A stretch of 54,750 nucleotides of DNA from Nanobdellota archaeon (GTDB lineage: Archaea > Nanobdellota > Nanobdellia > Woesearchaeales > UBA583), in contig JBMCRE010000006.1 in the NCBI GenBank assembly GCA_048625195.1, positions 1 through 54,750 on the forward strand, read 5' to 3'. The position numbers and the translations under genes were made by a program. This document shows positions 623-46,921 of this stretch, piece after piece. The notes under the pieces are model-generated. The model saw only the letters and a list, made by a program, of their open reading frames with translations. It did no database searches and had not been told where the DNA came from. Each line of letters opens with the position of its first letter. Positions within the stretch are counted from its first letter, which is position 1.

Positions 623-2776
623 TTATTTTAATTTTTTATGTAAATCATCATAATATAATAAACCATATTGTGGTCCTTTGTATTTTATAACATTAGCACT
701 ATTTTTAACAGCATATTTTAATGCTTTTTGTATTCCATATCCTTTTACATAAAAATAAAAAAAAGTTGATCCAAAACTATCTCCTGCTCCTGTTGTATCT
801 ACTATTTTTGTAACCTTTTGTGCTTTTATAAAATATTCTTGATTTCCATCATATGCATAAGCACCATTGCTACCATCTGTAATTACTACTATTTCTTTTA
901 CAATATTTTTTATATCTTTAAGACAATCTGTAATATTAGTTTTACCTGTTAAGAGTTCTGCTTCATCAAGATTTAAAATAACAATATCCATATTTACTAA
1001 TAGGTTTCTTAAATTCTTCTCTTTTCTAATGAGATGAGAACTTAAAGATAAACATGTTGTTGAATATTCACTTTCTTCTTTTAACTTTCTAGATAATTTA
1101 ATTAATGTTTGAAAAGTATCTCCTCCCATTGCTGTAAAATAATAATTTTTTGCATTAATATCATTGTATTTAAAATCATTTTCTATTAAATCAAAATTTT
1201 GTCCACGATATGTAAATATAATTCTATCATTATCTTTAGTATCTAACAAAATTGATTTAGCACATGGTTTTTTAGTAGGTTTCGTATTTATTATTTCAAC
1301 TCTATCTTTTTTTAATACTTCATAAATTTTATCTTTACTTTCTTGAGATATTTTTCCTAAATATGCAACTTTTGAACCTAAACGAGATAATGCAATTGCT
1401 GAATTTATCCCTCCACCACCAACATTTGTTTTAAAATCTTCATCAATTTTTATTTTATCTCCTAAATAAAATTCTGAAAATTTAACTGGTGCTGTAACAC
1501 CTATATCGATTGTATTAGAACCTACAACTAAAAAATCTTCAAAATGACTATTGTGCATTAAAAAGCTTCTTTGTAAAGAATCAATTCCTGGAAGGGACTT
1601 TCCTGATAAAAATTTAACTAAAGCTCCTCCTGCTAAACTTACATATGAAAAATCACCTAGTTTTGCAAATTTATATAGTGCTGTAACGCTATGTCCTCCT
1701 CCCATAAAAGTAAATGCATTTGAATTGATTATCCCTTTAATTATTCCTTGTGTTCCTCTTTCAAAAGCTTTTTCTTCGAAATTACCTGCTGGTCCTTTTA
1801 AATAAATAGAACCTGTATCTTTTAAAAATTTAGTATAGTAATTTATTGTTTTCTCTCCGATATCTTGAATTAAATATTTATCTATTAAATCTTTTTTTTC
1901 TTTAAGTAAATCTATTTCTATTTCTATTCTTTTTTTTCCATCAAAAATTGCTAAATCTTTTGGTAATATGAAATTTTTAGGGTATTGATCTAATAGTTTT
2001 TTTAAGTCATCTTTTAATGTAAGATATTTTTTTTCTTTTAAAAAATTTTCTTTACATCCTAAATTATACCCTTTAAGAATTAAAGCAATTTCAGCTATAA
2101 CTCCTGTTAATAATACAAAATCTACTTTTTTGGACGGTAAATTTTCCTTTAACATTTCAATTAAATCATCTGGCTTAGCACCACCCATTACGTATACAAG
2201 AGGTCTTTTTGTGTTTGAAATTCTATTTAAACCATTTATTTCTTTTTGCATCTGTCTTCCTGCAATCATTGGAATTTTTTTGAATCCTACAACTGAATTG
2301 TCAACCATTGATGTTTGTTCTCTATGAACAACACTAAATGCATCTGAGACATAAAAATCAAATAATTTTTCTAACTCTTTTATTATATTATTTGGTTTAT
2401 CTATTTTTTTTTCATCTTCATAAAATCTTAAATTTTCTAATAATAAAATATCTCCTTGTTCTAATTTTGAAATTTTCTCTTTTACTTTTGAAGAATATAT
2501 TTGAGATTCAAAATTAACCTTTATTTTTGTTTCTTTTTCTAATAATTTAGAATGTTCTTTTAATGATACACAGCTATCTGTACCTAATCTACCTTGGTGA
2601 GCAAGTATGATAACTTTTGCTCCTTTTTTTGCAAGTTCTTTTATTGTTAATGCTGATGCTTTAATTCTTTGATTCATTACAACTTTTTTGTCAATGATTG
2701 GTGAATTAATATCAACTCTAACTCCAACTATTTTTCCTTTTACATCGAAATTGTCTATAGTGAAATATTTATACAT
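623..2776 (-). CDS. pgk: phosphoglycerate kinase fused to C-terminal PfkB/ribokinase-family sugar kinase
   Basis: N-terminal ~405 aa carry PGK motifs VRVDINSP, AHQGR, LLENLRF, GGAK, GGGHS, SLAGGA; C-terminal ~305 aa carry PfkB signatures GGGGINSAIALSRLG and DTTGAGDSF. Confidence 0.92.
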   Translation of the reverse strand: MYKYFTIDNFDVKGKIVGVRVDINSPIIDKKVVMNQRIKASALTIKELAKKGAKVIILAHQGRLGTDSCVSLKEHSKLLEKETKIKVNFESQIYSSKVKEKISKLEQGDILLLENLRFYEDEKKIDKPNNIIKELEKLFDFYVSDAFSVVHREQTSMVDNSVVGFKKIPMIAGRQMQKEINGLNRISNTKRPLVYVMGGAKPDDLIEMLKENLPSKKVDFVLLTGVIAEIALILKGYNLGCKENFLKEKKYLTLKDDLKKLLDQYPKNFILPKDLAIFDGKKRIEIEIDLLKEKKDLIDKYLIQDIGEKTINYYTKFLKDTGSIYLKGPAGNFEEKAFERGTQGIIKGIINSNAFTFMGGGHSVTALYKFAKLGDFSYVSLAGGALVKFLSGKSLPGIDSLQRSFLMHNSHFEDFLVVGSNTIDIGVTAPVKFSEFYLGDKIKIDEDFKTNVGGGGINSAIALSRLGSKVAYLGKISQESKDKIYEVLKKDRVEIINTKPTKKPCAKSILLDTKDNDRIIFTYRGQNFDLIENDFKYNDINAKNYYFTAMGGDTFQTLIKLSRKLKEESEYSTTCLSLSSHLIRKEKNLRNLLVNMDIVILNLDEAELLTGKTNITDCLKDIKNIVKEIVVITDGSNGAYAYDGNQEYFIKAQKVTKIVDTTGAGDSFGSTFFYFYVKGYGIQKALKYAVKNSANVIKYKGPQYGLLYYDDLHKKLK

Positions 2777-6283: not shown

Positions 6284-7114
6284 TTGAAAATGAAAATTAA
6301 ATTGTTATTAAATAAAGATGTAAATTATAATGCTGATGTTTATTTTAAAAAAGCTAAAAAGTTAAAAGCTAAATTGCCAGGATTAGAAAAAGCTATGGAT
6401 GTGAGTTGTGAAAAGATTGAAAATTTTAATAAAAAAAAAAGTAGCTATATTGAGAAAAAAGTTCAAGAAGAAGTTCTTAAAAATCATGTAAAAAAAGAAT
6501 GGTTTGAAAAATTTAGATGGACAAAAACTACAAGTGGTTTTTTATTTGTTATTGGAAAAGATTCTTCAACTAATGAAATATTGATTAAGAAACATTTAGA
6601 AAACTCTGATATAGTTTTTCATACGATGGCATCTGGTTCTCCTTTTGGTATATTAAAAACTGAAAATAAGGAATTTAGTAAAGAAGATTTATATGAGTGT
6701 GGAGAATTTTTAGCAGATTTTTCTAGTCAATGGAAAAAGGGATTTGGAACTGCTGATGTTTTTTGGGTTTATCCTAATCAAGTTACTAAAAAAGCACAAA
6801 GTGGAGAGTATATTCAAAAAGGTTCTTTTATGGTTTATGGACAAAAAAATAATTTGAAAAATTTACCTTTAAGATTATCTTTAGGGGTTATTGTAAAACA
6901 TATTGAATTGGATGGTAAAAAAATTAAATATGAAGAACTTTTTTCTGGAAGCAAAAAAGCTTGTTTAAAATATTGTGATAGATTTATTAATATTGAACCA
7001 GGGAATAATGGATATAAAAGTTTAACAAAAGAGATTAAAAATAAGTTAAGAATATCTAGAATAGAAGATTTACCTAAATATATTCCTAATAATTGTAAAA
7101 TATTGAAGAAATAA
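6284..7114 (+). CDS. NFACT RNA-binding domain (DUF814) protein, truncated Rqc2/NEMF-like
   Basis: NADVYFKKAKKLKAK coil; WFEKFRW..GFLFVIGKDSSTNE, VFH, GSPF, SGEYIQKGSFMVYG; likely start at ATG 6290. Confidence 0.85.
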   Translation: MKMKIKLLLNKDVNYNADVYFKKAKKLKAKLPGLEKAMDVSCEKIENFNKKKSSYIEKKVQEEVLKNHVKKEWFEKFRWTKTTSGFLFVIGKDSSTNEILIKKHLENSDIVFHTMASGSPFGILKTENKEFSKEDLYECGEFLADFSSQWKKGFGTADVFWVYPNQVTKKAQSGEYIQKGSFMVYGQKNNLKNLPLRLSLGVIVKHIELDGKKIKYEELFSGSKKACLKYCDRFINIEPGNNGYKSLTKEIKNKLRISRIEDLPKYIPNNCKILKK

Positions 7115-7149: not shown

Positions 7150-10087
7150 ATTTTTAAAAAAAATCTCTTTGGTGAGTTTTAAAACCTATTTCGTTATATT
7201 TATAAATTAAAAGTAACTGGTATAGAGTAAATAAAGTTATTTATAAAAATGATTCAATATAATAATTTAGAAAATAGAATGGGAATATTTAGAAGAACAG
7301 AAAAAACAATAGGAGAAAAAGATCCACAAGGAAGAAGAGATTTTCTTAAAAAAGTTGGGATTGGCGCTGCAAGTTTATGGTTAGGAAATAGTTTTTTTAA
7401 TACTGATATTGCTCATGCTAGAAAAAAAATTCCTGGTGCAATTAAAGCAGATCCTGATCCTTCAATAGCTTCTGCGTGGAATATTTATCATAACAATATT
7501 TATGTAGAATATCCTAAACATTGGACTGCAAAACGAAGAGCATTAATGATTTTAAGAATGTGGAATGATAATACTGGATGGGGAGCAATTGATCAATTAA
7601 TACATAAAGATACACCTAAAAGTTCTCATGCTTATTGGTTACTTAGTACAAAAATGGGTGCATCTAGTAAAAACATTGTTAAAAGTGAAATATTAAATAA
7701 TCATGGATTGAAAGAATTTGGATTTGGTTTAGTACATTTATACAAAAAAGAAAATGTTTGGGCAAGAGAAAGATTTGCAAATGGAATATTTGTTTCTGCA
7801 AATTTAGAACAAGAAGATTATCAAAGATTAAAAAATATTGGAATTCCTATTAATTATAGAACTGATTTAAACCAGGAAGGAAACGCTAAAATGTTAGCTA
7901 AACAATTTGTTGATACCAACTTACAAAATAAAGAAAATATTTTAAATGTTGGAATTGGTGAAAAATTTAAAAATGTAAATGGTAACTTTGCAACAATGGA
8001 TATTAATACTCCACAATATGCATTAAAAAATGTATATTGGAACCTAGGATTTTATATACTTGCACATTATATGGTAGGAAAAATAACACCTTATAAAAAA
8101 TATAAAGACGAAGCAATTACTTTAAGAAATAAAAAGGATACTTATCCTAATTTTTATAATAAATTCAAATATAATACTGCAAATATGGATTTAATATAAA
8201 CTTATTATATTTTAATTTTCTGCTGGATTTGAATCTCCAGAAATATCATCTCCACTCTCATCTCCATTCTCTTCACCCTCTTCTCCACTTCCTTCTCCCC
8301 CACTCTCTTCTGAATAATCATAATATGAATTTTCTACACAACTCTCACCTTTTTCAGGATCTGGAACTCGTATTTTATAAGAAATACTGTTTGACTTTGT
8401 TGTTTCTGGATTATCTCCTATTTGAGTTGTTAAATCATATAATAATTTTATATTTTGTGTTCCTTCTCCTTTGATTAAATTAATTATTTGACTTGCATCT
8501 TCATTAATATTTTCTATTTTTCCTCTTGCTAAACCATCAATTGTTTCACCTATATCATCATGTCTATATCCTTCAACTGATAATTTATAAGTTAATTTAG
8601 ACATCTCTAATTCTTTATTATCTGAGGTTTGAAATATGTATGATATTGGTAATTCGCTTTTTGTAGATTCTATACAGTAAGAACCACTTTCAAATGGCTC
8701 AACGATTTCGAAACTATAACTTTGAGTAGGTGGAGTTTGACCTAATGTGAAACTTAGTTTCATATAGTCTTGAGCTGCTATTTTATTGTCTGTTTGAATG
8801 TTATCTCCTATAGCTGAATAATCTTTTAAACTTTCACTGTTGATTGCATCGTTTCCTTTGCCTGATGGAAGTAATTTTATTTCTAAAGTACAACTACCAG
8901 CTTTCAGTTTATTGAAATTATATTCATCAACAGAGTCTGCAAAACTGCCTATTGTAAAAGTATATGACCTTATTTTATTCATATCAGTATTATGATGTGC
9001 TACAAGTTCAACATTTATACCTTCAACATCATCTTGAAATTCTATATTATATTTCTTTCCAACTTCAAATGTAAAATCATCATTAATAGGAATTAAATCC
9101 GATGGATTCTCTGCTCCTTGATTTACTGTTAAACTTTGAGGCATTGAAGTTCCAAAAGCATTTTTAATAAAATCAGTTTTTTGAATAAAAAGTGTTTGTC
9201 CTTGAGTACCAGCTGTATTAATAAATTTAAGTTTTAAACTATAATCACTATTATTTAAAACATCATCAATCATTTGTTGAGTTGGGACTAAATAATAATT
9301 TCTACTTTGAGTTTGTTGCTCTTCTCCTAATGTGTCAGGAAATTTGAATAAATCTAATATTTCTAAACCACTTGAGGAAGATGGATTGACATTAATTGGT
9401 TTTACATCTTTATGAATTGCTTGACCATTTTCACCTGTTGCTGGACATGTTATGATATATGCTAAGTCTAATGAGTTTTGCTCGTTTGCAAAGTCAGTTC
9501 TAACATCGTATCCTAAATTTAAAAACAAAGTATTTCCTTGATAAATTGTTGTTTGAGGAATAATTTTTGTGTTTTGTTGGTTTAATTCATAGTTACTCAA
9601 CAATGCATCATTATCAAATAGTGTGTCACAATCAAATCCTGAACCTACTCCTACAACACCACCTGTAAAGTAACAGTTTGCAAGCATGAATTCGCCTTTG
9701 TGATATATATTTTCTTCGTAAACTTTTGTTTTTTGTTCGCCTTTTAATGAGTATTTATGTTCGATTCTAACTTTATTATAACGATATTTTGCTGAAACAT
9801 CAGTTACAACAACTGTATCTTGAACACTTCCTCCTGCTCGTACATATAAATTCTTTAATGAAAAAGATGAACCCATTTGAGGATTAGAAGATGTTTCATA
9901 AGTGCTTGGACAATGTTCACCACCTGGAGATTGTGGATCACAAATAAATTCTACTGAACTTCGTATATCTTGACCACCACTTACTGCTGCGTGCGTGAAA
10001 CGATACATCATAGATAAATCGCCTGTTAGAGGATTGTAGCCTTGAATTCGTGATTCTGGAAACATTGGACCAAATGCTGGCTCAACC
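7150..10087. repeat. tandem segmental duplication, copy A
   Basis: Matches 10142-13052 with near-identical blocks (7724-8058, 8298-8904, 9303-10087) separated by divergent blocks. Confidence 0.95.
7249..8199 (+). CDS. twin-arginine (Tat) signal protein, paralog A
   Basis: GRRDFLKK + hydrophobic stretch + AHA cleavage-like site; paralog of 10240-11199. Confidence 0.8.
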   Translation: MIQYNNLENRMGIFRRTEKTIGEKDPQGRRDFLKKVGIGAASLWLGNSFFNTDIAHARKKIPGAIKADPDPSIASAWNIYHNNIYVEYPKHWTAKRRALMILRMWNDNTGWGAIDQLIHKDTPKSSHAYWLLSTKMGASSKNIVKSEILNNHGLKEFGFGLVHLYKKENVWARERFANGIFVSANLEQEDYQRLKNIGIPINYRTDLNQEGNAKMLAKQFVDTNLQNKENILNVGIGEKFKNVNGNFATMDINTPQYALKNVYWNLGFYILAHYMVGKITPYKKYKDEAITLRNKKDTYPNFYNKFKYNTANMDLI

Positions 10088-10089
10088 AT
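8212..10089 (-). CDS. 5'-truncated alternative C-terminal cassette of the giant secreted protein
   Basis: Identical to the 1715-aa ORF from VEPAFGPMF onward except a ~130-aa variable domain and the acidic tail; no signal peptide; in-frame ATG at 10089 sits on the duplication breakpoint (ORF track starts at GTG 10098). Confidence 0.8.
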   Translation of the reverse strand: MVEPAFGPMFPESRIQGYNPLTGDLSMMYRFTHAAVSGGQDIRSSVEFICDPQSPGGEHCPSTYETSSNPQMGSSFSLKNLYVRAGGSVQDTVVVTDVSAKYRYNKVRIEHKYSLKGEQKTKVYEENIYHKGEFMLANCYFTGGVVGVGSGFDCDTLFDNDALLSNYELNQQNTKIIPQTTIYQGNTLFLNLGYDVRTDFANEQNSLDLAYIITCPATGENGQAIHKDVKPINVNPSSSSGLEILDLFKFPDTLGEEQQTQSRNYYLVPTQQMIDDVLNNSDYSLKLKFINTAGTQGQTLFIQKTDFIKNAFGTSMPQSLTVNQGAENPSDLIPINDDFTFEVGKKYNIEFQDDVEGINVELVAHHNTDMNKIRSYTFTIGSFADSVDEYNFNKLKAGSCTLEIKLLPSGKGNDAINSESLKDYSAIGDNIQTDNKIAAQDYMKLSFTLGQTPPTQSYSFEIVEPFESGSYCIESTKSELPISYIFQTSDNKELEMSKLTYKLSVEGYRHDDIGETIDGLARGKIENINEDASQIINLIKGEGTQNIKLLYDLTTQIGDNPETTKSNSISYKIRVPDPEKGESCVENSYYDYSEESGGEGSGEEGEENGDESGDDISGDSNPAEN

Positions 10090-10096
10090 TCCAATC

Positions 10097-10161
10097 ACAA
10101 CTTTTTAGAAAAAAGTTGTACCAAAACTTTTTTTAAAAGAGATTTTTAAAAAAATCTCTTT
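10097..10161. repeat. two adjacent perfect hairpins at the duplication junction
   Basis: ACAACTTTTT-AGA-AAAAAGTTGT (10097-10119) and AAAGAGATTTTT-AA-AAAAATCTCTTT (10136-10161). Confidence 0.85.
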
Positions 10162-13052
10162 AGTGAGTTTTAAATCCTATTTCGTTATATTTATAAATTA
10201 AAAGTAACTGGTATAGAGTAAATAAAGTTATTTATAAAAATGATTCAATATAATAATTTAGAAAATAGAATGGGAATATTTAGAAGAACAGAAAAAACAA
10301 TAGGAGAAAAAGATCCACAAGGAAGAAGAGATTTTCTTAAAAAAGTTGGGATTGGCGCTGCAAGTTTATGGTTAGGAAACAGTTTTTTAAATACTGATAT
10401 TGCTCATGCTAGAAAAAAAGTTCCTGGTGCAATTAAAGCTGATCCTGATCCTGCTATAACTTCTGCGTGGAATATTTATCATAACAATATTTATGTGAAC
10501 GAACCTAAATATTGGACTGCAAAACAAAGAGCACTAATGATTTTAAGAATGTGGACAGATAATACTGGATGGGGAGTAACTGATGATTTAATACATAAAG
10601 ATACACCTAAAAGTTCTCATGCTTATTGGTTACTTAGAACAAAAATGGGGGGATCTGGTAAAGAACTTGTAAAATATAAAAAATTAAAAAATTCTGGATT
10701 AGAAGAGTTTGCAATTGGTTTAGTACATTTATACAAAAAAGAAAATGTTTGGGCAAGAGAAAGATTTGCAAATGGAATATTTGTTTCTGCAAATTTAGAA
10801 CAAGAAGATTATCAAAGATTAAAAAATATTGGAATTCCTATTAATTATAGAACTGATTTAAACCAGGAAGGAAACGCTAAAATGTTAGCTAAACAATTTG
10901 TTGATACCAACTTACAAAATAAAGAAAATATTTTAAATGTTGGAATTGGTGAAAAATTTAAAAATGTAAATGGTAACTTTGCAACAATGGATATTAATAC
11001 TCCACAATATGCATTAAAAAATGTATATTGGAACCTAGGATTTTATATAAATACAGAATTTTTATTAGCATCAATGCTAAAAAATGAACAATTAGAAAAA
11101 ACAACATTAACTTTAAGAAATAATAACAAATATTTTTATAGAAAAACAAGAAAAAAACTAAATGTAAATTATAATACAGCAAATCTAAATTTATTATAAA
11201 AATTTAATCATCTCCTGTTTTTCCATCTTCCCCATTCTCTCCACCCTCATCTCCAGTCTCCTCTTCCCCACTCTCTTCTGAATAATCATAATATGAATTT
11301 TCTACACAACTCTCACCTTTTTCAGGATCTGGAACTCGTATTTTATAAGAAATACTGTTTGACTTTGTTGTTTCTGGATTATCTCCTATTTGAGTTGTTA
11401 AATCATATAATAATTTTATATTTTGTGTTCCTTCTCCTTTGATTAAATTAATTATTTGACTTGCATCTTCATTAATATTTTCTATTTTTCCTCTTGCTAA
11501 ACCATCAATTGTTTCACCTATATCATCATGTCTATATCCTTCAACTGATAATTTATAAGTTAATTTAGACATCTCTAATTCTTTATTATCTGAGGTTTGA
11601 AATATGTATGATATTGGTAATTCGCTTTTTGTAGATTCTATACAGTAAGAACCACTTTCAAATGGCTCAACGATTTCGAAACTATAACTTTGAGTAGGTG
11701 GAGTTTGACCTAATGTGAAACTTAGTTTCATATAGTCTTGAGCTGCTATTTTATTGTCTGTTTGAATGTTATCTCCTATAGCTGAATAATCTTTTAAACT
11801 TTCACTGTTGATTGCATCGTTTCCTTTGCCTGATGGAAGTAATTTGATTTCTAAAGTACAACTACCAGCTTTTAATTTATTAAAGTTATATTCATCAACT
11901 GAGTCTGAAAATTTTCCAAGTGTGAAAGGATATTTTTCTATAGATGTTGAATCTTTTTTATCTGCAATAAGTTCTATATTTACATTTTCAACATTGCCAT
12001 CAAACTCTATGTTATATCTTTTGTCAGTTTCAAAAATAAAATCATCTTTAATAGAATTTAAATTTGAAGGATTTTCGGCTTCTTGATTTACTGTTAAACT
12101 TTGTCCTATAGAAACACCCATTGCTCCATCTGTAAACTCTGCATTTTTAATTCTGAGAGTTTGTCCTTGAGTACCAGCTGTATTTATAACTTTAAGTTTT
12201 AAGTCATAATTTCCATTATTTAAAATTTCATCAACATCTATTCCACGAGTATTAAAATAATAATTAGTACTTTGAGTTTGTTGCTCTTCTCCTAATGTGT
12301 CAGGGAATTTGAATAAATCTAATATTTCTAAACCACTTGAGGAAGATGGATTGACATTAATTGGTTTTACATCTTTATGAATTGCTTGACCATTTTCACC
12401 TGTTGCTGGACATGTTATGATATATGCTAAGTCTAATGAGTTTTGCTCGTTTGCAAAGTCAGTTCTAACATCGTATCCTAAATTTAAAAACAAAGTATTT
12501 CCTTGATAAATTGTTGTTTGAGGAATAATTTTTGTGTTTTGTTGGTTTAATTCATAGTTACTCAACAATGCATCATTATCAAATAGTGTGTCACAATCAA
12601 ATCCTGAACCTACTCCTACAACACCACCTGTAAAGTAACAGTTTGCAAGCATGAATTCGCCTTTGTGATATATATTTTCTTCGTAAACTTTTGTTTTTTG
12701 TTCGCCTTTTAATGAGTATTTATGTTCGATTCTAACTTTATTATAACGATATTTTGCTGAAACATCAGTTACAACAACTGTATCTTGAACACTTCCTCCT
12801 GCTCGTACATATAAATTCTTTAATGAAAAAGATGAACCCATTTGAGGATTAGAAGATGTTTCATAAGTGCTTGGACAATGTTCACCACCTGGAGATTGTG
12901 GATCACAAATAAATTCTACTGAACTTCGTATATCTTGACCACCACTTACTGCTGCGTGCGTGAAACGATACATCATAGATAAATCGCCTGTTAGAGGATT
13001 GTAGCCTTGAATTCGTGATTCTGGAAACATTGGACCAAATGCTGGCTCAACC
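10142..13052. repeat. tandem segmental duplication, copy B
   Basis: Offset 2991 to 2965 bp from copy A; identity ends at GCTGGCTCAACC (13052 = 10087). Confidence 0.95.
10240..11199 (+). CDS. twin-arginine (Tat) signal protein, paralog B
   Basis: Same Tat motif; central ~110 aa identical to paralog A, flanks divergent. Confidence 0.8.
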   Translation: MIQYNNLENRMGIFRRTEKTIGEKDPQGRRDFLKKVGIGAASLWLGNSFLNTDIAHARKKVPGAIKADPDPAITSAWNIYHNNIYVNEPKYWTAKQRALMILRMWTDNTGWGVTDDLIHKDTPKSSHAYWLLRTKMGGSGKELVKYKKLKNSGLEEFAIGLVHLYKKENVWARERFANGIFVSANLEQEDYQRLKNIGIPINYRTDLNQEGNAKMLAKQFVDTNLQNKENILNVGIGEKFKNVNGNFATMDINTPQYALKNVYWNLGFYINTEFLLASMLKNEQLEKTTLTLRNNNKYFYRKTRKKLNVNYNTANLNLL

Positions 13053-16000
13053 TCGTTCTGATCGATTGAAGATAAAATATTGTCTGTTAGAACTGACCAA
13101 TCGCCTGTTAGAGCAACTAAACACATTTTATTTACTATTTGTTCTGAACCTAAACCTGCTTGTGAATAAAAAGTTCCTTTGTATCGTTCGTTTAATACTT
13201 TATCTCCTTCTTTTAATCCACTAATTCCTTGTAAAAATGGATTTTCGTGTGGATCGGAACCATCTGATCCTGTTCTTGTGCTTTTTTGGGAAAGTGTTTT
13301 AAATATAACATTTGTTGCTATGTCGCAAATTGCTTGTCCCATTAATCTCTCACAATATGAACCTTTTGTTTCTCCTATTTTTGCTTGTTCTAAGCAACCT
13401 TTAATTGATTCCATAATTTTTAAATAATTTTTTAAGTGTGAATAGGTATCAGTTACACAACCACATCTAATACTCTCAATTACATTGTCTGATGAATCCC
13501 ATCCTGGAACACCTTGAGGATCTAATCCAAAAAAATTACATCGTGTTTCATCAAATTTTGGAGCACCTTGAGAAAAACAAACTCCTGATGCAGCTTGAAG
13601 ATTAACAGCTGATACATCAAAAGTTCCATCTTGATTCTCTTCAATAGTTGCAGGAACACATTGTTCATGAATTAAACCTTCAGAGGTTGAAGTATATTCA
13701 AAAATTCCTTCTTCTTTTTCAAATTTAGTAACTCTACCTGAAACTATTACTCCATCCATTTCTTTATTTCCACTATAATCACAAGGTTGTTTAAATGATA
13801 AAGTATCAAACTGAGCAAGTAATTCATCGTCACCTTCTTGATGGGTAACCATCGCTTTACCTTCTAGTTCGGACTGAGTAAAATGTTTTTGCTCTGAATT
13901 TTCTGGAACAAAGACACCGTTATTATTTTGATCTAAACCTACAAAATCTCCTTCACATTCTTGTGGAGATGCTGTACATGCAACTCTATCACAAATCATA
14001 AACATTTTTCGTTTTGCATCATTCTTAGCATCTTCATCATCACCAATACTTGCAACTTTTATTCCATACCAAAATTTAGATGCAGTACATGCAACTACAC
14101 CTACAACTGATGCTGTTCCTGTCCATTCAACTGCTTGTTGTGTAAATGTAATTGTTTCATTTAAATAACCTATCCAATCATCAATCATTTCTGGAGTCAA
14201 CCATTTTGTACTGTCAAGAGGAGATTCTATATTAACTGATGTTTGAAAATATATTGGATTTTGTGTATCAATTGGTATATCACTCTCATCTACTGAATAT
14301 GTTAAATCTGCTCTAAATGCAAATTTTAATTCATCAGGATAATCAAGTGGTTTTATTTTCATTGGTAATATTTTCACTGGAATATGTACTATTAATTCAC
14401 CTGTATCTTTGTCCAATCTATAATTCATTCTTGACTGATCTAATTGAGCATATTGAGAATGTTTAGAAGTTTTTGTATCTTCTCTAATATTTATACGAGT
14501 TAATTGAGAAATTTGTCCTGGTCCAATGTATTGAAATCTTCCAATCATTGCAAATTCTACATTTCCACTACCTGAACGAAAATCTCCGACATTTTCTATT
14601 TCTGATGCGTAAAGTGTATTTGGAATTGTTGTAATCTCTCCTGGTTTCCACATCGTGTTTCCTGCATCTAATTCTACCTGTTTTGAATCTATTCCTACAT
14701 TACCAAATTTATCTTGCATAATAAAACAAATTGTATTTCTACTAGAAACATCACTTACTTCTGGATTTTTATTCTCATTATTAGCTTGATTATAATCTGA
14801 TTGGTCAAAGTTTTTTTCTTGTAATCCAATTCGTGCATCAAAATTTCCACTACTATCTGAAGTTATTGTTGTTTTTTGAAACATATAATTTGTTAAAGAT
14901 ATTTGTTTTTCTTCTAAATTTAATTCTGGATCATCTACTCTTTCATTATCTAATTGTCCTAAATTTCTTACAAATAAATCCTGATAATCATCACATCTAA
15001 TATTATTTCCATCACTATCTTGTGCATCATAAGGTAGAGTAAATATTGTCATTTCAACTCCTCCTTTATTTGTTTTACCTTCTATTTCTTGAGAAAAAAA
15101 TCTTGCAACTCCATTTTTAAACATTTCTTCGGGCTCTAATGTTTCATCAATTAGTGCTGGTGGTTTATTACTAAACATAATATTATGAGCCTGCTTGTTT
15201 ATATTACCTGCTAAGTCTACTGCGATAAATGTTAAATTATTTTGTCCTTCAACTAAATTTAATTGAATGGTTGTTAAATTATCTTCTATTGTTGATGTAT
15301 AATTTTTATTATTAAAAGTATAATTTAAAACATTAGCATCTGTTGAAATATTATAGATTAAACTATTTCCATTAACATATAAATCATCATTGAGGTTATT
15401 AGTTAATTTGACATCTGCGTTATTCATTGATGAACGATAGTTAACTGATAAAATATCAACATATGGAGGTAATCTGTCAACTGTTACTGACATGTTTGTT
15501 AAACTTGTAAATAAGTGATCATTTGAAGGGTTAGTTGTTACAAAATAAATTTGATTTTCGTTTTCTCTTAACCCACTAATAATAATTTCAAAAAGACTTC
15601 CTGTTAAATCAATTTTACTTAAAAGACCTAAGTTACCAATATTATTAGGGTTTTTATTAAGTATATAATACAAGTTATCATCTGAATCTGAAATACTTCC
15701 TGAAATATTTACTGATGTTTCTGAAATAACATTTTCATAATCACTGATATTTATTGAGTTAGAATATTTATCAAATGTTAAAGTGTGAGTATATTCGTTG
15801 GAGCTCTCATATGTTGGAAAAGGATATTTTTGAACTATTTTTATTTCATTTTCTCCTGAAATTAAATCATCTTGAATTGTAGAAAAATTGATATCAACTA
15901 ACTGGTCAACAACTGTGATTCTTTTTTGAGTTCCTATTTCTTCATCTTTATATATTATTTGTGAAATTTCTTCTGGTTGAAAAGATATTGAATCACCATT

Positions 16001-16351
16001 ATTTAATATTTTTTGTGTGCCTGTAGAAATATTTATATTATATATTCTTGTGGGATGATTATTGTAAATGTTTAAAGTTGCTCCTAGTGGAAGTGTTATA
16101 TCTTCAATATCATCTCCCTCTAAATAAATGTCTATGTTTTCTGCATAAACATCTTGTTGTGCTTTTAAAATATCATTTAAATATAGTTCTATTTGAGTTC
16201 CTGAAGATGTTTTCATATCTATTGTTGCTTGAGATGTTAAACTAGATGGTGTTGTATATTCAAATTGAGGATAAGATGCAAAACTTATTGTTATTAAAAA
16301 AAATGCTATTAAAATGTTTACAATTATCTTGTTTTTGTTAGAAAGATTCAC
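11204..16351 (-). CDS. giant secreted/surface protein (1715 aa): Ig-like beta-rich N-terminus, Cys-rich core, variable domain, acidic tail
   Basis: GTG start, Sec-type signal peptide; Ig-like motifs (VDRLPP, LVEGQNNLTFIAVDLAGN); many Cys in aa ~740-1260; E/G/D-rich C-tail. Confidence 0.8.
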   Translation of the reverse strand: MNLSNKNKIIVNILIAFFLITISFASYPQFEYTTPSSLTSQATIDMKTSSGTQIELYLNDILKAQQDVYAENIDIYLEGDDIEDITLPLGATLNIYNNHPTRIYNINISTGTQKILNNGDSISFQPEEISQIIYKDEEIGTQKRITVVDQLVDINFSTIQDDLISGENEIKIVQKYPFPTYESSNEYTHTLTFDKYSNSINISDYENVISETSVNISGSISDSDDNLYYILNKNPNNIGNLGLLSKIDLTGSLFEIIISGLRENENQIYFVTTNPSNDHLFTSLTNMSVTVDRLPPYVDILSVNYRSSMNNADVKLTNNLNDDLYVNGNSLIYNISTDANVLNYTFNNKNYTSTIEDNLTTIQLNLVEGQNNLTFIAVDLAGNINKQAHNIMFSNKPPALIDETLEPEEMFKNGVARFFSQEIEGKTNKGGVEMTIFTLPYDAQDSDGNNIRCDDYQDLFVRNLGQLDNERVDDPELNLEEKQISLTNYMFQKTTITSDSSGNFDARIGLQEKNFDQSDYNQANNENKNPEVSDVSSRNTICFIMQDKFGNVGIDSKQVELDAGNTMWKPGEITTIPNTLYASEIENVGDFRSGSGNVEFAMIGRFQYIGPGQISQLTRINIREDTKTSKHSQYAQLDQSRMNYRLDKDTGELIVHIPVKILPMKIKPLDYPDELKFAFRADLTYSVDESDIPIDTQNPIYFQTSVNIESPLDSTKWLTPEMIDDWIGYLNETITFTQQAVEWTGTASVVGVVACTASKFWYGIKVASIGDDEDAKNDAKRKMFMICDRVACTASPQECEGDFVGLDQNNNGVFVPENSEQKHFTQSELEGKAMVTHQEGDDELLAQFDTLSFKQPCDYSGNKEMDGVIVSGRVTKFEKEEGIFEYTSTSEGLIHEQCVPATIEENQDGTFDVSAVNLQAASGVCFSQGAPKFDETRCNFFGLDPQGVPGWDSSDNVIESIRCGCVTDTYSHLKNYLKIMESIKGCLEQAKIGETKGSYCERLMGQAICDIATNVIFKTLSQKSTRTGSDGSDPHENPFLQGISGLKEGDKVLNERYKGTFYSQAGLGSEQIVNKMCLVALTGDWSVLTDNILSSIDQNEVEPAFGPMFPESRIQGYNPLTGDLSMMYRFTHAAVSGGQDIRSSVEFICDPQSPGGEHCPSTYETSSNPQMGSSFSLKNLYVRAGGSVQDTVVVTDVSAKYRYNKVRIEHKYSLKGEQKTKVYEENIYHKGEFMLANCYFTGGVVGVGSGFDCDTLFDNDALLSNYELNQQNTKIIPQTTIYQGNTLFLNLGYDVRTDFANEQNSLDLAYIITCPATGENGQAIHKDVKPINVNPSSSSGLEILDLFKFPDTLGEEQQTQSTNYYFNTRGIDVDEILNNGNYDLKLKVINTAGTQGQTLRIKNAEFTDGAMGVSIGQSLTVNQEAENPSNLNSIKDDFIFETDKRYNIEFDGNVENVNIELIADKKDSTSIEKYPFTLGKFSDSVDEYNFNKLKAGSCTLEIKLLPSGKGNDAINSESLKDYSAIGDNIQTDNKIAAQDYMKLSFTLGQTPPTQSYSFEIVEPFESGSYCIESTKSELPISYIFQTSDNKELEMSKLTYKLSVEGYRHDDIGETIDGLARGKIENINEDASQIINLIKGEGTQNIKLLYDLTTQIGDNPETTKSNSISYKIRVPDPEKGESCVENSYYDYSEESGEEETGDEGGENGEDGKTGDD

Positions 16352-16483: not shown

Positions 16484-17461
16484 ATGCAAAACAAATATGT
16501 AGATTTAAAATTAGGTTATAGTTGTAATAATAACTGCCTACATTGTGTAATTTCTAATCAAAAAAAAGAGGCACAAAATTTAAGAGGAAACTTTAATAGA
16601 ACAATTCAAGAAATTTTTAAAGAACTTGAAAAATCAAAATCTAATGGATGTGAAAGAGTTACTATTACAGGTGGAGAACCTACTATAAGAAATGATTTTT
16701 GTGATATAATTAATTATGCAAAAAATGATTTGAATTTTATTGTTTATTTACAAACTAATGGAAGAATGTTTAAATCTTTAGAATTTACAAAAAAGACATT
16801 ACTTTTTATTGATTTTATTATTATTGCATTACATTCTGATAAAGAATCAATTCATGATAAAATTACTCAGAGAAAAAATAGTTTTAAAGAAACAATTGAT
16901 GGTATTAAAAATTTAATTTCTTTGAATGCTAATATTGGAATTAAAATTGTTATTTCTAAATATAATTATAAAGATTTAAAAAATATATTAATTTTATTAA
17001 AATCTTTAAAAGTAAATTATGTTAATATAGCTTTTCCACATGCTAATGGAAATGCTTTGAAGTATTTTGATAAAGTTGTACCTAATTACAAAGATATTGT
17101 ATCTTATGTTGAAAATGCAATAGAGTTTTCAAAAGAAAATAATATTATTTTAGAATTAGAACAAGTTTTACCTTGTTGTTTAAATAAAAATTATGATATG
17201 AAATATTTTACTGATATAAAATTAAAATCGAATGAATGTGAATTAAAACAATTAAATCAAGATATGTTAAAAGGAAAAAATTTATTCAAAAAAGATAAAA
17301 GAAAAATCCCACAATGTAAAAGTTGTATTTATAATAGATATTGTGATGGATTTTGGAAAGAGTATATTGAAAAGAGAGGATATGATGAATTTAAATGTGT
17401 AAATATTTTTTCTAAAAAGGTAAAAGACATTATAAAAGATAAAATTAATCAATGGAAATAA
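16484..17461 (+). CDS. radical SAM protein with C-terminal SPASM/twitch-like Cys cluster
   Basis: CNNNCLHC, TGGEPT, QTNG; CKSCIYNRYCDG. Confidence 0.9.
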   Translation: MQNKYVDLKLGYSCNNNCLHCVISNQKKEAQNLRGNFNRTIQEIFKELEKSKSNGCERVTITGGEPTIRNDFCDIINYAKNDLNFIVYLQTNGRMFKSLEFTKKTLLFIDFIIIALHSDKESIHDKITQRKNSFKETIDGIKNLISLNANIGIKIVISKYNYKDLKNILILLKSLKVNYVNIAFPHANGNALKYFDKVVPNYKDIVSYVENAIEFSKENNIILELEQVLPCCLNKNYDMKYFTDIKLKSNECELKQLNQDMLKGKNLFKKDKRKIPQCKSCIYNRYCDGFWKEYIEKRGYDEFKCVNIFSKKVKDIIKDKINQWK

Positions 17462-22990: not shown

Positions 22991-23455
22991 TTATATATTA
23001 AATGAATCTGATTGACTACTACCATATTGAGTTGCAATTTTAACTTTATGTGTTCCTGGATTTAAATTTATATTTTGAATAATAACCATAGTATCTTGTG
23101 GTTGAAATAATGTTAAATTTTTTGTTAAATTATTTGCATAAACTATAGAAAAATCATCTTGAAAAGCTTCATTTATAAATAAATCAAATAGTTTGCTACT
23201 TAATTTTGTTTCTCCTATATTTTTTACATATACATGTAAATCCTGAGAACTATCATTATAATGTATATTTGTAATTGCAAGACTTGTTTTTATTTTATTA
23301 GAAGATAATTCATTTTTTTTACTAAATGATTGCTGTGTATCATTTACATAGTTCATAAATAAAATGACTAAACTTGTAGTTACAATTAATACTGCAATGA
23401 ACATAATCAATGTACTTACTGCTCCTCCAAATGCTTTTTTGTTTTTTAATCTCAT
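22991..23455 (-). CDS. flaG: archaellum accessory protein ArlG/FlaG
   Basis: AVSTLIMFIAVLIV N-terminal helix, YVKNIG, PGTHKVKIATQYG. Confidence 0.85.
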   Translation of the reverse strand: MRLKNKKAFGGAVSTLIMFIAVLIVTTSLVILFMNYVNDTQQSFSKKNELSSNKIKTSLAITNIHYNDSSQDLHVYVKNIGETKLSSKLFDLFINEAFQDDFSIVYANNLTKNLTLFQPQDTMVIIQNINLNPGTHKVKIATQYGSSQSDSFNI

Positions 23456-23595
23456 TTTATTTTAGGTTTAATTGTAACTAATTTATATTGTTTTATTAAT
23501 GTATTTAAATGATGTAATTTATTTGTTATTATTGTATTATTATATAATAGTATTAATATAAATTAAAAATTATTAATCTTATAATTATCTTCTAA

Positions 23596-24666
23596 TTATT
23601 CATTGTTAATAATTTGCAATACTGCTTTTGTTAGTTTTTCATCTAAATTTTTTTCGTTTAATTTACTAATAAAATATAATGATACTATGTGGTCTTTTAC
23701 ATTTAAAGACTTTGATTTTTTTTCTGTATCAATGTCATCCATTCCCTTTAAAAATTTGTCTAATTCAAAAAAAACTTCAGGAGTAATCCATTTTAATGTT
23801 TCTGTATAATACCTTAGAATATTTTTGCTCTCTTCTACTCCTATTCTTTTTACTAAATATTCTAACCAACTTAATATAATCACTAAAGAATTTGTATTTG
23901 TTTTCAGACTAGTTAAAGGTACTGCATCTGATGCTGCCTCTTCGATATTTAAAGTGTCTAACTCTAGAAGCGAATGTTTTAAATCATCTTTTGAACTTCT
24001 ATTTTGTGATGAATTTGTATAATTTGAAATATCCAACTTTTGAATACTCTCATTTTCTGATTCTTGATTATTTTGTTCATCTTGATTAGTACCATCATTA
24101 TTTAAAACTATTTTTTTTGGTTCTGGTGATGCATCTTGATCGATAAAAGGATTATATTGATTGTTTACTAATTCATATAAAGATAAAAATTTGCTCATAT
24201 TATTATTAATATCTTTTAATTGTTCATCTGATGTTGTAGTTTTAGTTTCCAAGTCTGAAACTCTATGCTCCATTGAACTGACTGTTCCTTGTAAATCTTT
24301 AATTTCTGTATTTAAATTTACTATATTATCATTTGTTTCTTTTAATTCTGATCTTATTTTGTTTAAGACTTCTGATAAAGACTTTTTTGTACCACTGTTT
24401 TGATTATTATTTACTGATGAATTATTTTGTGGTTGGTTGGAGTTTTGTGAATTAGAATCTTGAAAATTAAGATTACCTTGGGGAATTGTCGTTGCATTCC
24501 CTTGATTATTTGTATTATTTACATTCTCATTTTGATTGTTTTCAACTTGATTTTGTTGCACATTACTTGATTGAGCATTATCATAAGATGCTCCTGTCTG
24601 CTTATTTTTAGGGGGTTGTGTTTTTTTTTTGCCCCCTAATAAAAAGTCAATTAAACCTAATACCAT
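23596..24666 (-). CDS. archaellum accessory protein ArlC/D/E fusion
   Basis: Coiled coil + LSLYELVNNQYNPF (ArlC) and WLEYLVKRIG..LRYY..LKWI..DHIVSLYFI (ArlD/E). Confidence 0.85.
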   Translation of the reverse strand: MVLGLIDFLLGGKKKTQPPKNKQTGASYDNAQSSNVQQNQVENNQNENVNNTNNQGNATTIPQGNLNFQDSNSQNSNQPQNNSSVNNNQNSGTKKSLSEVLNKIRSELKETNDNIVNLNTEIKDLQGTVSSMEHRVSDLETKTTTSDEQLKDINNNMSKFLSLYELVNNQYNPFIDQDASPEPKKIVLNNDGTNQDEQNNQESENESIQKLDISNYTNSSQNRSSKDDLKHSLLELDTLNIEEAASDAVPLTSLKTNTNSLVIILSWLEYLVKRIGVEESKNILRYYTETLKWITPEVFFELDKFLKGMDDIDTEKKSKSLNVKDHIVSLYFISKLNEKNLDEKLTKAVLQIINNE

Positions 24667-37184: not shown

Positions 37185-38441
37185 ATGGCTCAAAGTAAAA
37201 AAAATACTAAAAAAAGTAGTCAAGAAAGTAAAAGTAAAGCTTCATCAAAAAAAGTTGATGCTAAAACTAATAAGACAAGTGCTTCGAAAAAGAAAAATGA
37301 ACCAATTCAATCAAAGGTAAATCATGATTCTAAAAAAAAGCATGACACAACTAAATCAAAGGATAGTCATGATAAAAAGAAGCAACATGTTTCTCAAAAA
37401 GAAGTTCAACCAAACAATAATGTTTGGATGATGGTTGCAATGATATTAGGAATATTAATTATATTACTAGTAATTGCTCTTGGTGTAATGTATTTTGACC
37501 AAAACAATAAAACTAATGATAATAACAATGATGTTCCTACTAATAATGAGTCAAATGTACAATTACTAATTATTGAAGATCCTGAATGTATAAATTGTGA
37601 AGTTGATTTGTTTGTAAGTCAAGTTAAAGAAAACTTAATTCCTAACTTAGAAATAGAAAAGTTAGATTATGAATCACAATTAGGAGAAGCTATTTTAAGT
37701 GATATAAATGCTAAACAAGTTCCTGTTTATCTTTTTAGTACAAATTTTGACCAAAGAGATGATTGGACAGAGTTGAAAGAAGCTTTTGTGGAAGTAAATA
37801 CTAATGAAGAAACTTATTATATGCTTAATCCTCAACTTATTCCAAATAAAGTATTAACTCAAGAACCTATTATTACAGATTCTGCAATTGTAATTGGAGA
37901 TGAAAATGCACCTGTAACTTTAATTAAATTTACAGATTTTGAATGTCCTTATTGTGCAATTGCTGAAGGCAATAAAGAATTAGTTGAACAATTTAGTGCA
38001 GAAGCCCCTAACTATGTTCCTGCACTACCTAAAATTGAATCTGAATATATAGATACTGGAAAAGTAAAAATGGTATTTTATAATATGCCTGCTAATTCAT
38101 TATCTGCTCATTTAGCAGGACTTTGTGCTAATGAACAAGGTGCTTTTATTGAATATTCACAATTATTATGGGATAAAAAAGATAATTGGGATACTAAAAT
38201 TGATGAAGAGAGAATTAAATTATATAAACAATTTGCACAAGAAGTTAATCTAGATACAGATAAATTTGATGAATGTTTTGACAGTGAAAAATATATTCAA
38301 CAAATTGAAGAAGAAAAGGCACTTGGTCAAGCATACGGAATTACAGGCACTCCTGCTTTTGTAGTTGGAACAACTTTAATTTCTGGAGCACAAGACTATA
38401 GTGTGTTTAAACAAATTATTGATGCAGAACTTGCTAAATAA
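37185..38441 (+). CDS. membrane-anchored DsbA-family thioredoxin-fold protein
   Basis: Lys-rich N-tail, TM, CINC domain, then FTDFECPYC and GITGTPAF. Confidence 0.88.
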   Translation: MAQSKKNTKKSSQESKSKASSKKVDAKTNKTSASKKKNEPIQSKVNHDSKKKHDTTKSKDSHDKKKQHVSQKEVQPNNNVWMMVAMILGILIILLVIALGVMYFDQNNKTNDNNNDVPTNNESNVQLLIIEDPECINCEVDLFVSQVKENLIPNLEIEKLDYESQLGEAILSDINAKQVPVYLFSTNFDQRDDWTELKEAFVEVNTNEETYYMLNPQLIPNKVLTQEPIITDSAIVIGDENAPVTLIKFTDFECPYCAIAEGNKELVEQFSAEAPNYVPALPKIESEYIDTGKVKMVFYNMPANSLSAHLAGLCANEQGAFIEYSQLLWDKKDNWDTKIDEERIKLYKQFAQEVNLDTDKFDECFDSEKYIQQIEEEKALGQAYGITGTPAFVVGTTLISGAQDYSVFKQIIDAELAK

Positions 38442-45793: not shown

Positions 45794-46921
45794 ATGCATT
45801 ATTATTTATGTTTAACTTCAGTTTGTAATTTGAATTGTAGATATTGTCAAGGAAAGTCTGTTGAAGATTTTATGAGTTATGATGAGAGTTTAAATTATGA
45901 ATTTGATATTCCAAATGTAAGTAAAATAAAAATAGATGATTTAATTAATTTTTCAAAAGATGATGATAATTTTGTTTTGACTTTTTATGGTGGTGAACCT
46001 TTATTAGAGATTAATAAAATAAAAGAAATTATTAATAGAGTTCCTGCAAAGGATTTTATGATGCAAACAAATGCTCAAGATTTAAATAAATTATCTATTA
46101 ACTATTTAAATAAGATTTCTACTATTTTAGTTTCAATAGATGGCACAAAAAAACATACTAATTTTCAAAGAGGAAATAAAGTGTATGAAAATATAATTTC
46201 TAATGTAAAAAAGGTTTCTAAGGATGGATATAAAGGTGAAATTATTGCAAGGATGACTGTTGATGAAAAATCTAATATTTATAAAAATGTTACCCATTTA
46301 TATGATAATTTAGATTATTCTTTTTCTTCTATTCATTGGCAAATAGATGCTCAATTTTTTCAAGAAGATTATAAAGCAAGAAATTTTAAATATTGGTTAG
46401 ATAATGATTATAAACCTAATTTAAAGAAACTTATTTTTTGGTGGTTAGAGATAATTAAAAATACTAAAAAAGTTCCTAGAATTTATCCGTTTGTAGGAAT
46501 TGTTTATTCACTTTTAACACAAGAAAAGTCATTGATGAGATGCGGAGCGGGGCATAGTTGTTTAGGTATACAAACTAATGGAAAAATTGTTGCATGTCCA
46601 ATTTCTGCTGGTTATAAACCACTTTATATGGGAGATGTTTATAATTCTACTTTATTGGATGTTAAAAAAAATAAAATGTTTGTTAATAAACAATGTTTAA
46701 AATGTTCAATTTTAGATATTTGTGGTGGAAGATGTTTGTATGCAAATAAAACTCAACTTTGGGGAGAAAAAGGTTATAATGAAGTTTGTGAGAGTATTTT
46801 TTATTTAGTTGACAATTTAAAGTCTATTATTTCTGAAATAGATAAGATGATTCAAAAAAAAGAAATAGAAATAGAGGATTTTAATTATCCAAGATATAAT
46901 GGATGTGAAATTATTCCTTAA
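45794..46921 (+). CDS. radical SAM/SPASM protein, AF0577 (TIGR04084)-like
   Basis: CNLNCRYC, FYGGEP, RCGAG, ACP, CLKC....CGGRC, terminal NGCEIIP. Confidence 0.88.
   Translation: MHYYLCLTSVCNLNCRYCQGKSVEDFMSYDESLNYEFDIPNVSKIKIDDLINFSKDDDNFVLTFYGGEPLLEINKIKEIINRVPAKDFMMQTNAQDLNKLSINYLNKISTILVSIDGTKKHTNFQRGNKVYENIISNVKKVSKDGYKGEIIARMTVDEKSNIYKNVTHLYDNLDYSFSSIHWQIDAQFFQEDYKARNFKYWLDNDYKPNLKKLIFWWLEIIKNTKKVPRIYPFVGIVYSLLTQEKSLMRCGAGHSCLGIQTNGKIVACPISAGYKPLYMGDVYNSTLLDVKKNKMFVNKQCLKCSILDICGGRCLYANKTQLWGEKGYNEVCESIFYLVDNLKSIISEIDKMIQKKEIEIEDFNYPRYNGCEIIP

Follow-up and report, generated by a model that had tools for sequence, protein, structure and literature searches.

Positions 7150 to 16351 of the window, by which we mean the whole 54,750-nucleotide (nt) stretch of DNA that was analyzed, carry a full-length gene for a 1715-amino-acid (aa) protein, a partner gene convergent with its 3' end, and, in tandem with these, a second partner gene facing a headless (5'-truncated) copy of the large gene's 3' end. 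On balance, and with modest confidence, we favor the view that a Woesearchaeota-type DPANN archaeon carries at this locus a genuine cell-surface module of two genes that is hypervariable and whose headless 3' units can recombine with the expressed gene. We postulate that the first gene of the module encodes an exported protein of about 1700 aa whose distal part would be a chain of immunoglobulin (Ig)-like beta-sandwiches ending in an acidic tail, and that the second encodes a fast-evolving signal-peptide protein of about 300 aa with a predicted tetratricopeptide repeat (TPR)-like fold. The extra truncated copy preserves the partner gene and the large gene's 3' terminus as one unit. Because long exact blocks flank old variable coding blocks, homologous recombination could bring the stored tail, along with the partner allele beside it, into the expressed gene, either by deletion between direct repeats or by gene conversion. 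By either route, the surface protein would receive a new exposed end and a new partner at the same time.

A tandem unit of about 2.95 kb had been proposed in an earlier note on this DNA. A repeat search, blastn, and a MAFFT identity profile (computed in 60-nt steps) agreed on a direct repeat of about 2.97 to 2.99 kb, at 7150 to 10087 (copy A) and 10142 to 13052 (copy B). Positions 7150 to 8058 match 10142 to 11049 with 95.4% identity over 911 nt, and positions 8258 to 10087 match 11226 to 13052 with 93.3% identity over 1833 nt. The copies are offset by 2991, 2968, and 2965 nt, three values that differ because small indels sit in the diverged parts. The repeat region matches nowhere else in the 838-kb genome. 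The tandem arrangement thus stands, but the copies are not directly joined: between them lie 54 nt of unique sequence (junction J), which folds into two strong hairpins with 10-bp and 11-bp stems and for which no source sequence was found in the genome. The ORFs (open reading frames) were as claimed, with copy B joined to the intact 1715-aa gene, whereas copy A starts with MIGMVEPAFGP and has no hydrophobic N terminus or signal peptide. An in-frame ATG at 10089 directly precedes the first homologous codon of cassette A (10087). Each C-terminal copy is indeed paired with its own partner allele, and the tails of both copies are acidic and rich in Gly, Glu, and Asp.

The repeat is a mosaic in which exact runs alternate with three diverged blocks, V1, V2, and V3 (Table 1). 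Exact runs of 747 nt (9341 to 10087), 580 nt (8298 to 8877 and 11266 to 11845), 335 nt (7724 to 8058 and 10715 to 11049), and 204 nt (7185 to 7388 and 10176 to 10379) were found. The near-identical block of 785 nt is identical at 784 of its positions, the sole mismatch being at 9340. The ORF coordinates place both copies in equal codon phase across this block, so a crossover there would fuse them in frame, as the earlier note had predicted. V1 is the middle of the partner gene (about 82 to 95% identity per 60-nt step). V2 reaches from the partner's last 50 or so codons across the intergenic spacer into the large gene's acidic tail (about 50 to 63%, gapped), and V3 lies within the large gene (about 55 to 82%).

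V3 spans 133 codons, and its two alleles differ at 56 aa and at 117 of 396 nt. Comparison of allele a with allele b gave a synonymous divergence (dS) of 0.72, a nonsynonymous divergence (dN) of 0.31, and a ratio (omega) of 0.43. When the same number of sites was substituted at random, the V3a frame stayed open in 0.145% of 20,000 replicates. Given this rarity and the omega value, V3a evolved as coding sequence. The stored allele appears to have diverged long ago while being read as protein, yet its flanks carry no differences. V3 falls in the least conserved stretch (residues ~1310 to 1490) of the 12 closest family members profiled and maps to about one beta-sandwich of the AlphaFold model. 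V3a and V3b are equidistant (28 to 29%) from the nearest alleles of other species. Such a mosaic could result from import of a foreign allele or from continuing gene conversion of the flanks.

Three other origins were considered and rejected. Plain duplication followed by drift does not fit a V3 dS of 0.72 beside flanks that are identical over 747 and 580 nt. A diversity-generating retroelement does not fit because no reverse transcriptase family was found in the scanned ORFs and the copy differences are of all base types. A site-specific inversion switch of the Mu Gin or shufflon type does not fit because the repeats are direct and no recombinase family was found among the neighbors.

We surveyed relatives of the window's own genome (G000) in a set of 41 genomes, comprising the 20 genomes of the genus (G000 to G019) and 21 genomes of other families in the order, and in an order-wide sample of 301 genomes. 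In G015, another species of the genus, the large gene is followed on the plus strand by a small secreted-protein gene and then by a headless second 3' copy. The tandem copies share 823 nt at 98% and 712 nt at 78%, and the small gene's 106-nt upstream region at 99%. The 5' boundary in G015 (DWSAFTEG) lies about 18 codons upstream of that in G000 (VEPAFGP). The two events were therefore independent, yet they ended at nearly one linker, which precedes the first beta-sandwich. The large gene of G015 is itself read in two frames (L013, contig C1, 9442 to 16141), of 1445 aa and then 792 aa with a 17-nt overlap; the second frame starts with its own signal peptide, and the orphan copy is likewise in two parts (315 and 540 aa).

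G011, a single-contig genome, has a full gene with its partner at about 755 to 761 kb and, about 580 kb away, six partner paralogues at 167 to 183 kb. Two of these paralogues are each followed by a convergent open C-terminal fragment, of 146 aa or 228 aa, and the fragments are 65% and 75% identical to the full gene. The stored frames in G000, G015, and G011 are all open. Recurrence as a tandem in G015 and as a distant array in G011 argues against an assembly artifact and lends independent support to the orphan-module logic that the earlier note had proposed. The island that houses the G011 array (L022/L023, contig C1, 163000 to 190000) also encodes a DDE transposase, a Fic/DOC protein, a 735-aa beta-propeller protein, and a DUF2779 protein.

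Window positions 8200 to 11225 were compared with Logan contigs of four of five public runs (X1, X2, X3, and X5, the last from another study). In X1, the depth was 18.3 for V3a (A specific), 18.1 for V2b (B specific), and 13.7 and 16.7 for the two V1 variants, while the shared blocks had depths of 26.9 to 41.3, about the sum of the A- and B-specific depths. Each V1 variant has a 151-nt unitig of its own in both X1 and X3. At 10848 and 10894, full-depth X1 sequence departs from the window, so X1 possibly came from a sample other than the source. X1, X2, and X3 all show the 785-nt block continuing into the remainder of the large gene. Two contigs enter junction J, one from X3 (10120 to 10496, no differences) and one from X5 (9638 to 10110), and the X1 depth bins over it are filled by pieces outside those listed. 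Contig cover is lacking in X2 at 10119 to 10421 and in X3 at 9008 to 9209, which is not readable as absence of the sequence. A hairpin-forming stretch of 21 nt at 10128 to 10148 is shared by X1 and X5 contigs (X5 depth, 29.5) that carry other sequence before 10128, suggesting that this AT-rich motif occurs also in another context or organism in mats.

A 2180-nt contig of X2 has a different combination of blocks, leading from the partner's shared block through an A-type 3' end (V2a) and a B-type V3 into the full gene. Among the 35 listed differences from copy A in V3, this contig has the copy B letter at 24 and a private letter at the other 11 (65 more differences lie beyond those listed). The contig could be either the product expected of a crossover in the 580-nt block or a sign that block phase in the assembly is uncertain.

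Some of these observations weigh against a hypervariable module that exchanges its ends. The X1 depths could reflect two copies per genome or, equally, two equally abundant strains, and the X3 and X5 contigs overlap junction J by 22 to 23 nt only, which is under the 31-nt bridging rule. No recombinase, invertase, or reverse transcriptase family was found near the locus among the 36 window proteins scanned (34 of the 35 ORFs of at least 150 aa plus two shorter ones; ORF 8229 to 8474 and other short ORFs lie outside the scan), so any switching would be unprogrammed general recombination. A switch of the deletion type would be one-way. Two copies of the conserved module part occur in only 2 of the 36 matching genomes of the order-wide sample, G000 and G015, and the arrangement is therefore occasional rather than a fixed feature of the family; the G011 fragments are shorter, lack the conserved module part, and are hence outside this count. 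Finally, the small neighbor proteins of G015 are not detectably in the partner family (hhalign probability of about 1%).

The same observations feed an explanation that we regard as doubtful but worth serious attention, namely, that the locus is a structural variant that is neutral and transient. Two diverged alleles, from strains living side by side, would have undergone unequal crossover at a locus made hypervariable by something else, yielding a tandem duplicate whose headless copy has no role and will be lost or decay. The identical flanks imply that the event, or the last homogenization, was very recent; the X2 contig resembles the single-copy recombinant that unequal crossover gives; and both the rarity of second copies and the lack of a dedicated recombination gene nearby would be expected. 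What this explanation handles poorly is that three genomes have each kept, independently, the pairing of partner and convergent 3' fragment, in one case within a six-paralogue array, that the 5' boundaries in G000 and G015 nearly coincide, and that every stored frame is open. We consider an assembly artifact improbable, in which the assembler would have placed one after the other the haplotypes of two strains at a locus that is really single copy. Exact repeats of 580 to 747 nt are hard to phase with short reads, and the summed depths in X1 and the block combination in X2 would fit such an artifact. Against it, junction J, whose 54 nt are unique in the genome, links the cassette's 5' end with the region upstream of the partner, a join that a single-copy locus would not have; the X3 and X5 contigs run into J; and analogous units exist in G015 and single-contig G011.

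A polymorphic toxin-immunity system, in which the variable C terminus would be delivered as a toxin, with the partner serving as immunity protein and copy A representing an orphan pair like those of CdiA or Rhs loci, seems to us very improbable. A truncated 3' copy with its own neighbor gene does resemble such orphan modules of a C-terminal toxin and its immunity gene. However, Pfam and NCBIfam revealed no toxin or enzyme family, and the fold searches agreed with the earlier note that no toxin domain is recognizable. The variable part is modeled as an Ig-like beta-sandwich followed by more sandwiches and the acidic tail, and the partner is convergent, about 300 aa long, and predicted to be TPR-like with an export-type signal. 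Our preference remains with the hypervariable surface module, in which the stored copy would act as a donor and the partner may bind the variable tail. The sequences themselves establish how the locus is built, how its families are related, that V3a evolved as coding sequence, that such units recur in three genomes, and that another sample holds a recombinant allele.

Table 1. Features of the duplicated locus, in window positions
Feature	Position	Strand	Remarks
Upstream region, partner gene A	7150..7248	+	Homology to 10142-10239 begins at ~7150-7152, 36 nt past the RqcH-like gene's stop (7114)
Partner gene A, 316 aa	7249..8199	+	GRRDFLKK twin-arginine-type signal and hydrophobic stretch; predicted TPR-like all-helical mature domain
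V1 allele a	7389..7723	+	Counterpart 10380-10714; within the partner's mature domain
V2 allele a	8059..8297	.	Counterpart 11050-11265; partner 3' end, spacer, acidic C-terminal tail of cassette
Orphan cassette A, 628 aa	8212..10098	-	Intact open frame, no stops; corresponds to residues ~1091-1715 of the full gene
V3 allele a	8878..9302	-	Counterpart 11846-12267; about one Ig-like beta-sandwich, hypervariable zone of the family
Near-identical recombination block	9303..10087	-	Corresponds to 12268-13052; encodes the module's conserved first beta-sandwich; one 785-nt unitig in run X1
Junction J	10088..10141	.	Unique 54 nt, two hairpins
Partner gene B, 319 aa	10240..11199	+	80-82% identical to A; last ~50 residues replaced
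Full-length gene, 1715 aa	11204..16351	-	Signal/anchor, beta-rich N-terminal half, Cys-rich core, beta-sandwich chain, acidic tail

The 1715-aa protein begins with a hydrophobic signal or anchor (hydropathy peak at residues 2 to 13). A beta-rich N-terminal half is followed by a Cys-rich helical core (residues ~740 to 1100), Ig-like beta-sandwiches (~1100 to 1685), and an acidic disordered tail. Neither this protein nor the 628-aa product of cassette A belonged to any Pfam or NCBIfam family; the large protein had no Pfam match, CARDB included, at E ≤ 0.01 and no match in a PDB sequence search at E ≤ 1. The ESM Atlas gave only a weak lead (0.77), to Big_3/DUF4165 clusters. A word-seeded search returned 55 proteins at E ≤ 1e-3 among the 8000 candidates scored, most of them "hypothetical proteins" of 1650 to 1880 aa from Woesearchaeota or Nanoarchaeota metagenome-assembled genomes (MAGs). 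The large protein represents a DPANN (Woesearchaeota/Nanoarchaeia) family without a name. Some public contigs encoding a large protein of this DPANN type sit in MAGs titled "Methanosarcinales archaeon" or "Bdellovibrionales bacterium" (L025, L027 to L030, and L032), labels that may be automatic unless the bins are mixed.

The 628-aa module matched 21 of the 41 relatives: G000 itself, 17 of the 19 other genus genomes, and 3 of the 21 from other families. Its conserved first 225 residues matched 36 of the 301 genomes sampled from the order, including the unpublished G130. The AlphaFold model of residues 740 to 1715, built from 51 sequences (pLDDT, 77.9; pTM, 0.68), shows the helical core with family-invariant cysteines, the beta-sandwich chain, and the disordered acidic tail. 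Fold searches with this model found only generic Ig arrays, such as complement MG domains, integrins, adhesins, and S-layer proteins, with Foldseek query-normalized TM scores of ≤0.12 and VIA Z scores of ≤9.0 on single sandwiches of about 100 residues.

For the partner gene, a single-sequence search in the 41 genomes matched G000 only, a result of limited sensitivity that the profile searches overcame. At 7 of 9 relatives' loci inspected, the large gene's 3' end adjoins a gene for a 233- to 396-aa protein with the motif [SGN]RRxF[LIM]; in the two remaining loci, this place is taken by a 910-aa coiled-coil protein (G013) and by small signal-bearing proteins that lack RR (G015). With a profile built from 11 sequences, a search of 1.84 billion proteins retrieved 136 representative clusters at E ≤ 1e-3, of which 72 reached E ≤ 1e-10. 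An 86-sequence profile matched 13 of the 19 other genus genomes, with the match adjoining the large gene in 12 of the 13, and none of the 21 genomes outside the genus. The partner is thus a true family linked to the large gene. The only Pfam model found in the 86 family members was TAT_signal, in 10 of them.

The mature partner was modeled with confidence as an all-helical repeat (pLDDT, 85.2; pTM, 0.81). Foldseek found no match to this fold in the PDB at E ≤ 0.001, and VIA-align pointed to TPR proteins with a best Z score of 9.7, which is below the tool's caution level for helical folds. "TPR-like" is therefore used here to describe the predicted model, not to assign a family. Complex prediction with residues 1300 to 1715 of the large protein and the mature partner scored 0.00 in two runs, which speaks neither for nor against binding.

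Over the whole gene, partners A and B differ with an omega of 1.4 (13.2 synonymous and 75.8 nonsynonymous differences). In the next relative, the partner is 37% identical, versus 62% for the large protein (core), both on contigs of 8866 nt, and the partner evolves faster than the large protein. The C-terminal type of copy B's partner recurs in that 37% relative. A third partner allele, P0057, from a public contig (79%), combines A-type and B-type residues with private ones in a mosaic.

The partners had been described as Tat (twin-arginine translocation) proteins. The motif is real: an S/T-R-R-x-F-L-K-type sequence with a hydrophobic stretch is present in the partners, and both pass the TIGR01409 twin-arginine model (19 bits; cutoff, 16.7). 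The mechanism is doubtful, since TatC (PF00902) was found in 0 of the 20 genus genomes (G000 itself being 87% complete) and neither TIGR00945 nor TatA (PF02416) was found in 5 genus genomes at E ≤ 0.1, two of which are single contigs. For comparison, PF00902 was detected in 2 of the 21 order members that belong to other families and in 11 of 14 controls. Twin arginines occur in 61 of the 86 partner family members (KR in 3 more), and a pattern search of the 749 G000 ORFs of at least 100 aa found such a signal in the partner genes alone. The motif is thus conserved in the partner family and does not mark a general export route. The partners may be exported through Sec or membrane anchored, may use an unknown translocase, or, more speculatively, may use the system of a host. 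That a twin-arginine signal is conserved in this genus, whose genomes yielded no Tat machinery, is a puzzle in its own right. A second N-terminal motif, MG[ILFVM][FW], often after LE, lies about 15 residues before RR in 15 of the 86 members.

Our literature search, in the parts of the papers it returned, gave no description of this two-gene surface module. Within that material, the closest described analogue is VARTIG of the Thermococcales, a large archaeal signal-peptide protein with several Ig-like domains whose variability is greatest in the C-terminal Ig region (Makarova et al. 2021, PMC8416519). In that paper, smaller adjoining genes can be aligned to the C-terminal part and are presumed to undergo recombination with the long gene, the layout is likened to polymorphic toxin systems with no toxin identified, no recombination within loci was detected, and no counterpart is reported outside the Thermococcales (PMC8416519). 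The present locus is alike in having a large Ig-like protein with a most variable C-terminal Ig region (seen in the conservation profile and the AlphaFold model), smaller genes that align with the C terminus (cassette A in G000, the G015 orphan, and the G011 fragments), and a polymorphic-toxin-like layout without a toxin. It differs in several respects. Compared with VARTIG, which has arCOG07710/CARDB-type Ig domains, the families appear unrelated, judging from Pfam (no match, CARDB included, at E ≤ 0.01); the acidic tails lack the DNNxxxGG motif that in VARTIG follows a hydrophobic stretch; a predicted TPR-like partner with a twin-arginine signal covaries with the tail; and the stored copies are exact-flanked direct repeats in one genome.

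Orphan CdiA-CT/CdiI and Rhs-CT/immunity modules consist of 5'-truncated variable 3' ends, each with its own neighbor gene, and retain homology that permits recombination. The truncated copies of G000, G015, and G011 are alike in this respect, but they have no toxin domain and no demarcation motif, and the partner is convergent and large (316 to 319 aa) with an export-type signal, unlike a small cytoplasmic immunity protein encoded directly downstream on the same strand. In Neisseria pilE/pilS and Borrelia vlsE/vls, silent headless cassettes donate to one expressed gene by gene conversion. Cassette A is likewise a headless potential donor with alternating conserved and variable blocks. It differs in belonging to an archaeon with no known adaptive-immune adversary, in being one stored copy as opposed to an array, in traveling with a second gene, and in that transfer is putative, hinted at only by the recombinant X2 contig and the mosaic partner allele P0057. 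The phage Mu G and P1 C segments store alternative tail fiber C termini, each with its own assembly chaperone gene, and so resemble the present pairing of C-terminal ends with an accessory gene. Here the repeats are direct and do not bound an invertible segment, no invertase was found among the scanned neighbors, and the only inverted repeats found (three pairs, 70 to 76% AT-rich matches elsewhere) include no meaningful flanking ones. The CdiA/Rhs, pilE/pilS, and Mu G systems are best read as functional analogies only.

DPANN archaea live attached to other cells, and how they recognize their hosts is an open question. With a lineage-specific giant surface protein, a hypervariable exposed end, spare copies, and a covarying partner, the locus is a candidate for DPANN host recognition, and its purpose may be host or kin recognition or escape from viruses. 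It would also extend VARTIG, the sole archaeal analogue described in the literature we found, beyond the Thermococcales. We speculate, as a possibility that falls short of being probable, that the genus as a whole runs recombination-based surface variation, with cassettes of alternative Ig-like domains and matched TPR-like partners exported by a twin-arginine-type signal without a Tat translocase. If so, exchange between cassette and gene would respecify host cell attachment or virus resistance within a population.

The window is contig C6 of an 838-kb genome of 23 contigs with 24% G+C and an estimated completeness of 87%. The organism is a DPANN-type archaeon, as the earlier note had recognized: the window encodes aEF-1alpha, aRF1, a thermosome, and archaellin, together with SMC and a DsbA-like protein, and homologues of the large protein are named Woesearchaeota or Nanoarchaeota archaeon. 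The DsbA-like gene among archaeal genes points to an archaeon with the means to form extracellular disulfides. At 22991 to 24666 (minus strand) and 37185 to 38441 (plus strand), this small genome has archaellin and FlaC/D/E-type genes and the DsbA-like thioredoxin-fold gene.

Other genes of the window also drew our attention. The 276-aa ORF just upstream of the repeat (6284 to 7114, plus strand) matches only positions 381 to 619 of the 645-position archaeal RqcH model (NF041120; E = 2e-75; NFACT-R), and the gene 5' of it encodes a PLD-type nuclease and not the N-terminal half of RqcH, so RqcH seems to be split or truncated in the window. A 717-aa frame at 623 to 2776 (minus strand) joins a complete phosphoglycerate kinase domain (residues 7 to 393) to a PfkB-family sugar kinase domain (440 to 704), an unusual fusion. 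Head-to-head with the large gene lies a radical-SAM protein gene (16484 to 17461, plus strand) whose nearest relatives are HxsC-type peptide maturases, far below family cutoffs, and a second radical-SAM gene follows further on (45794 to 46921, plus strand).

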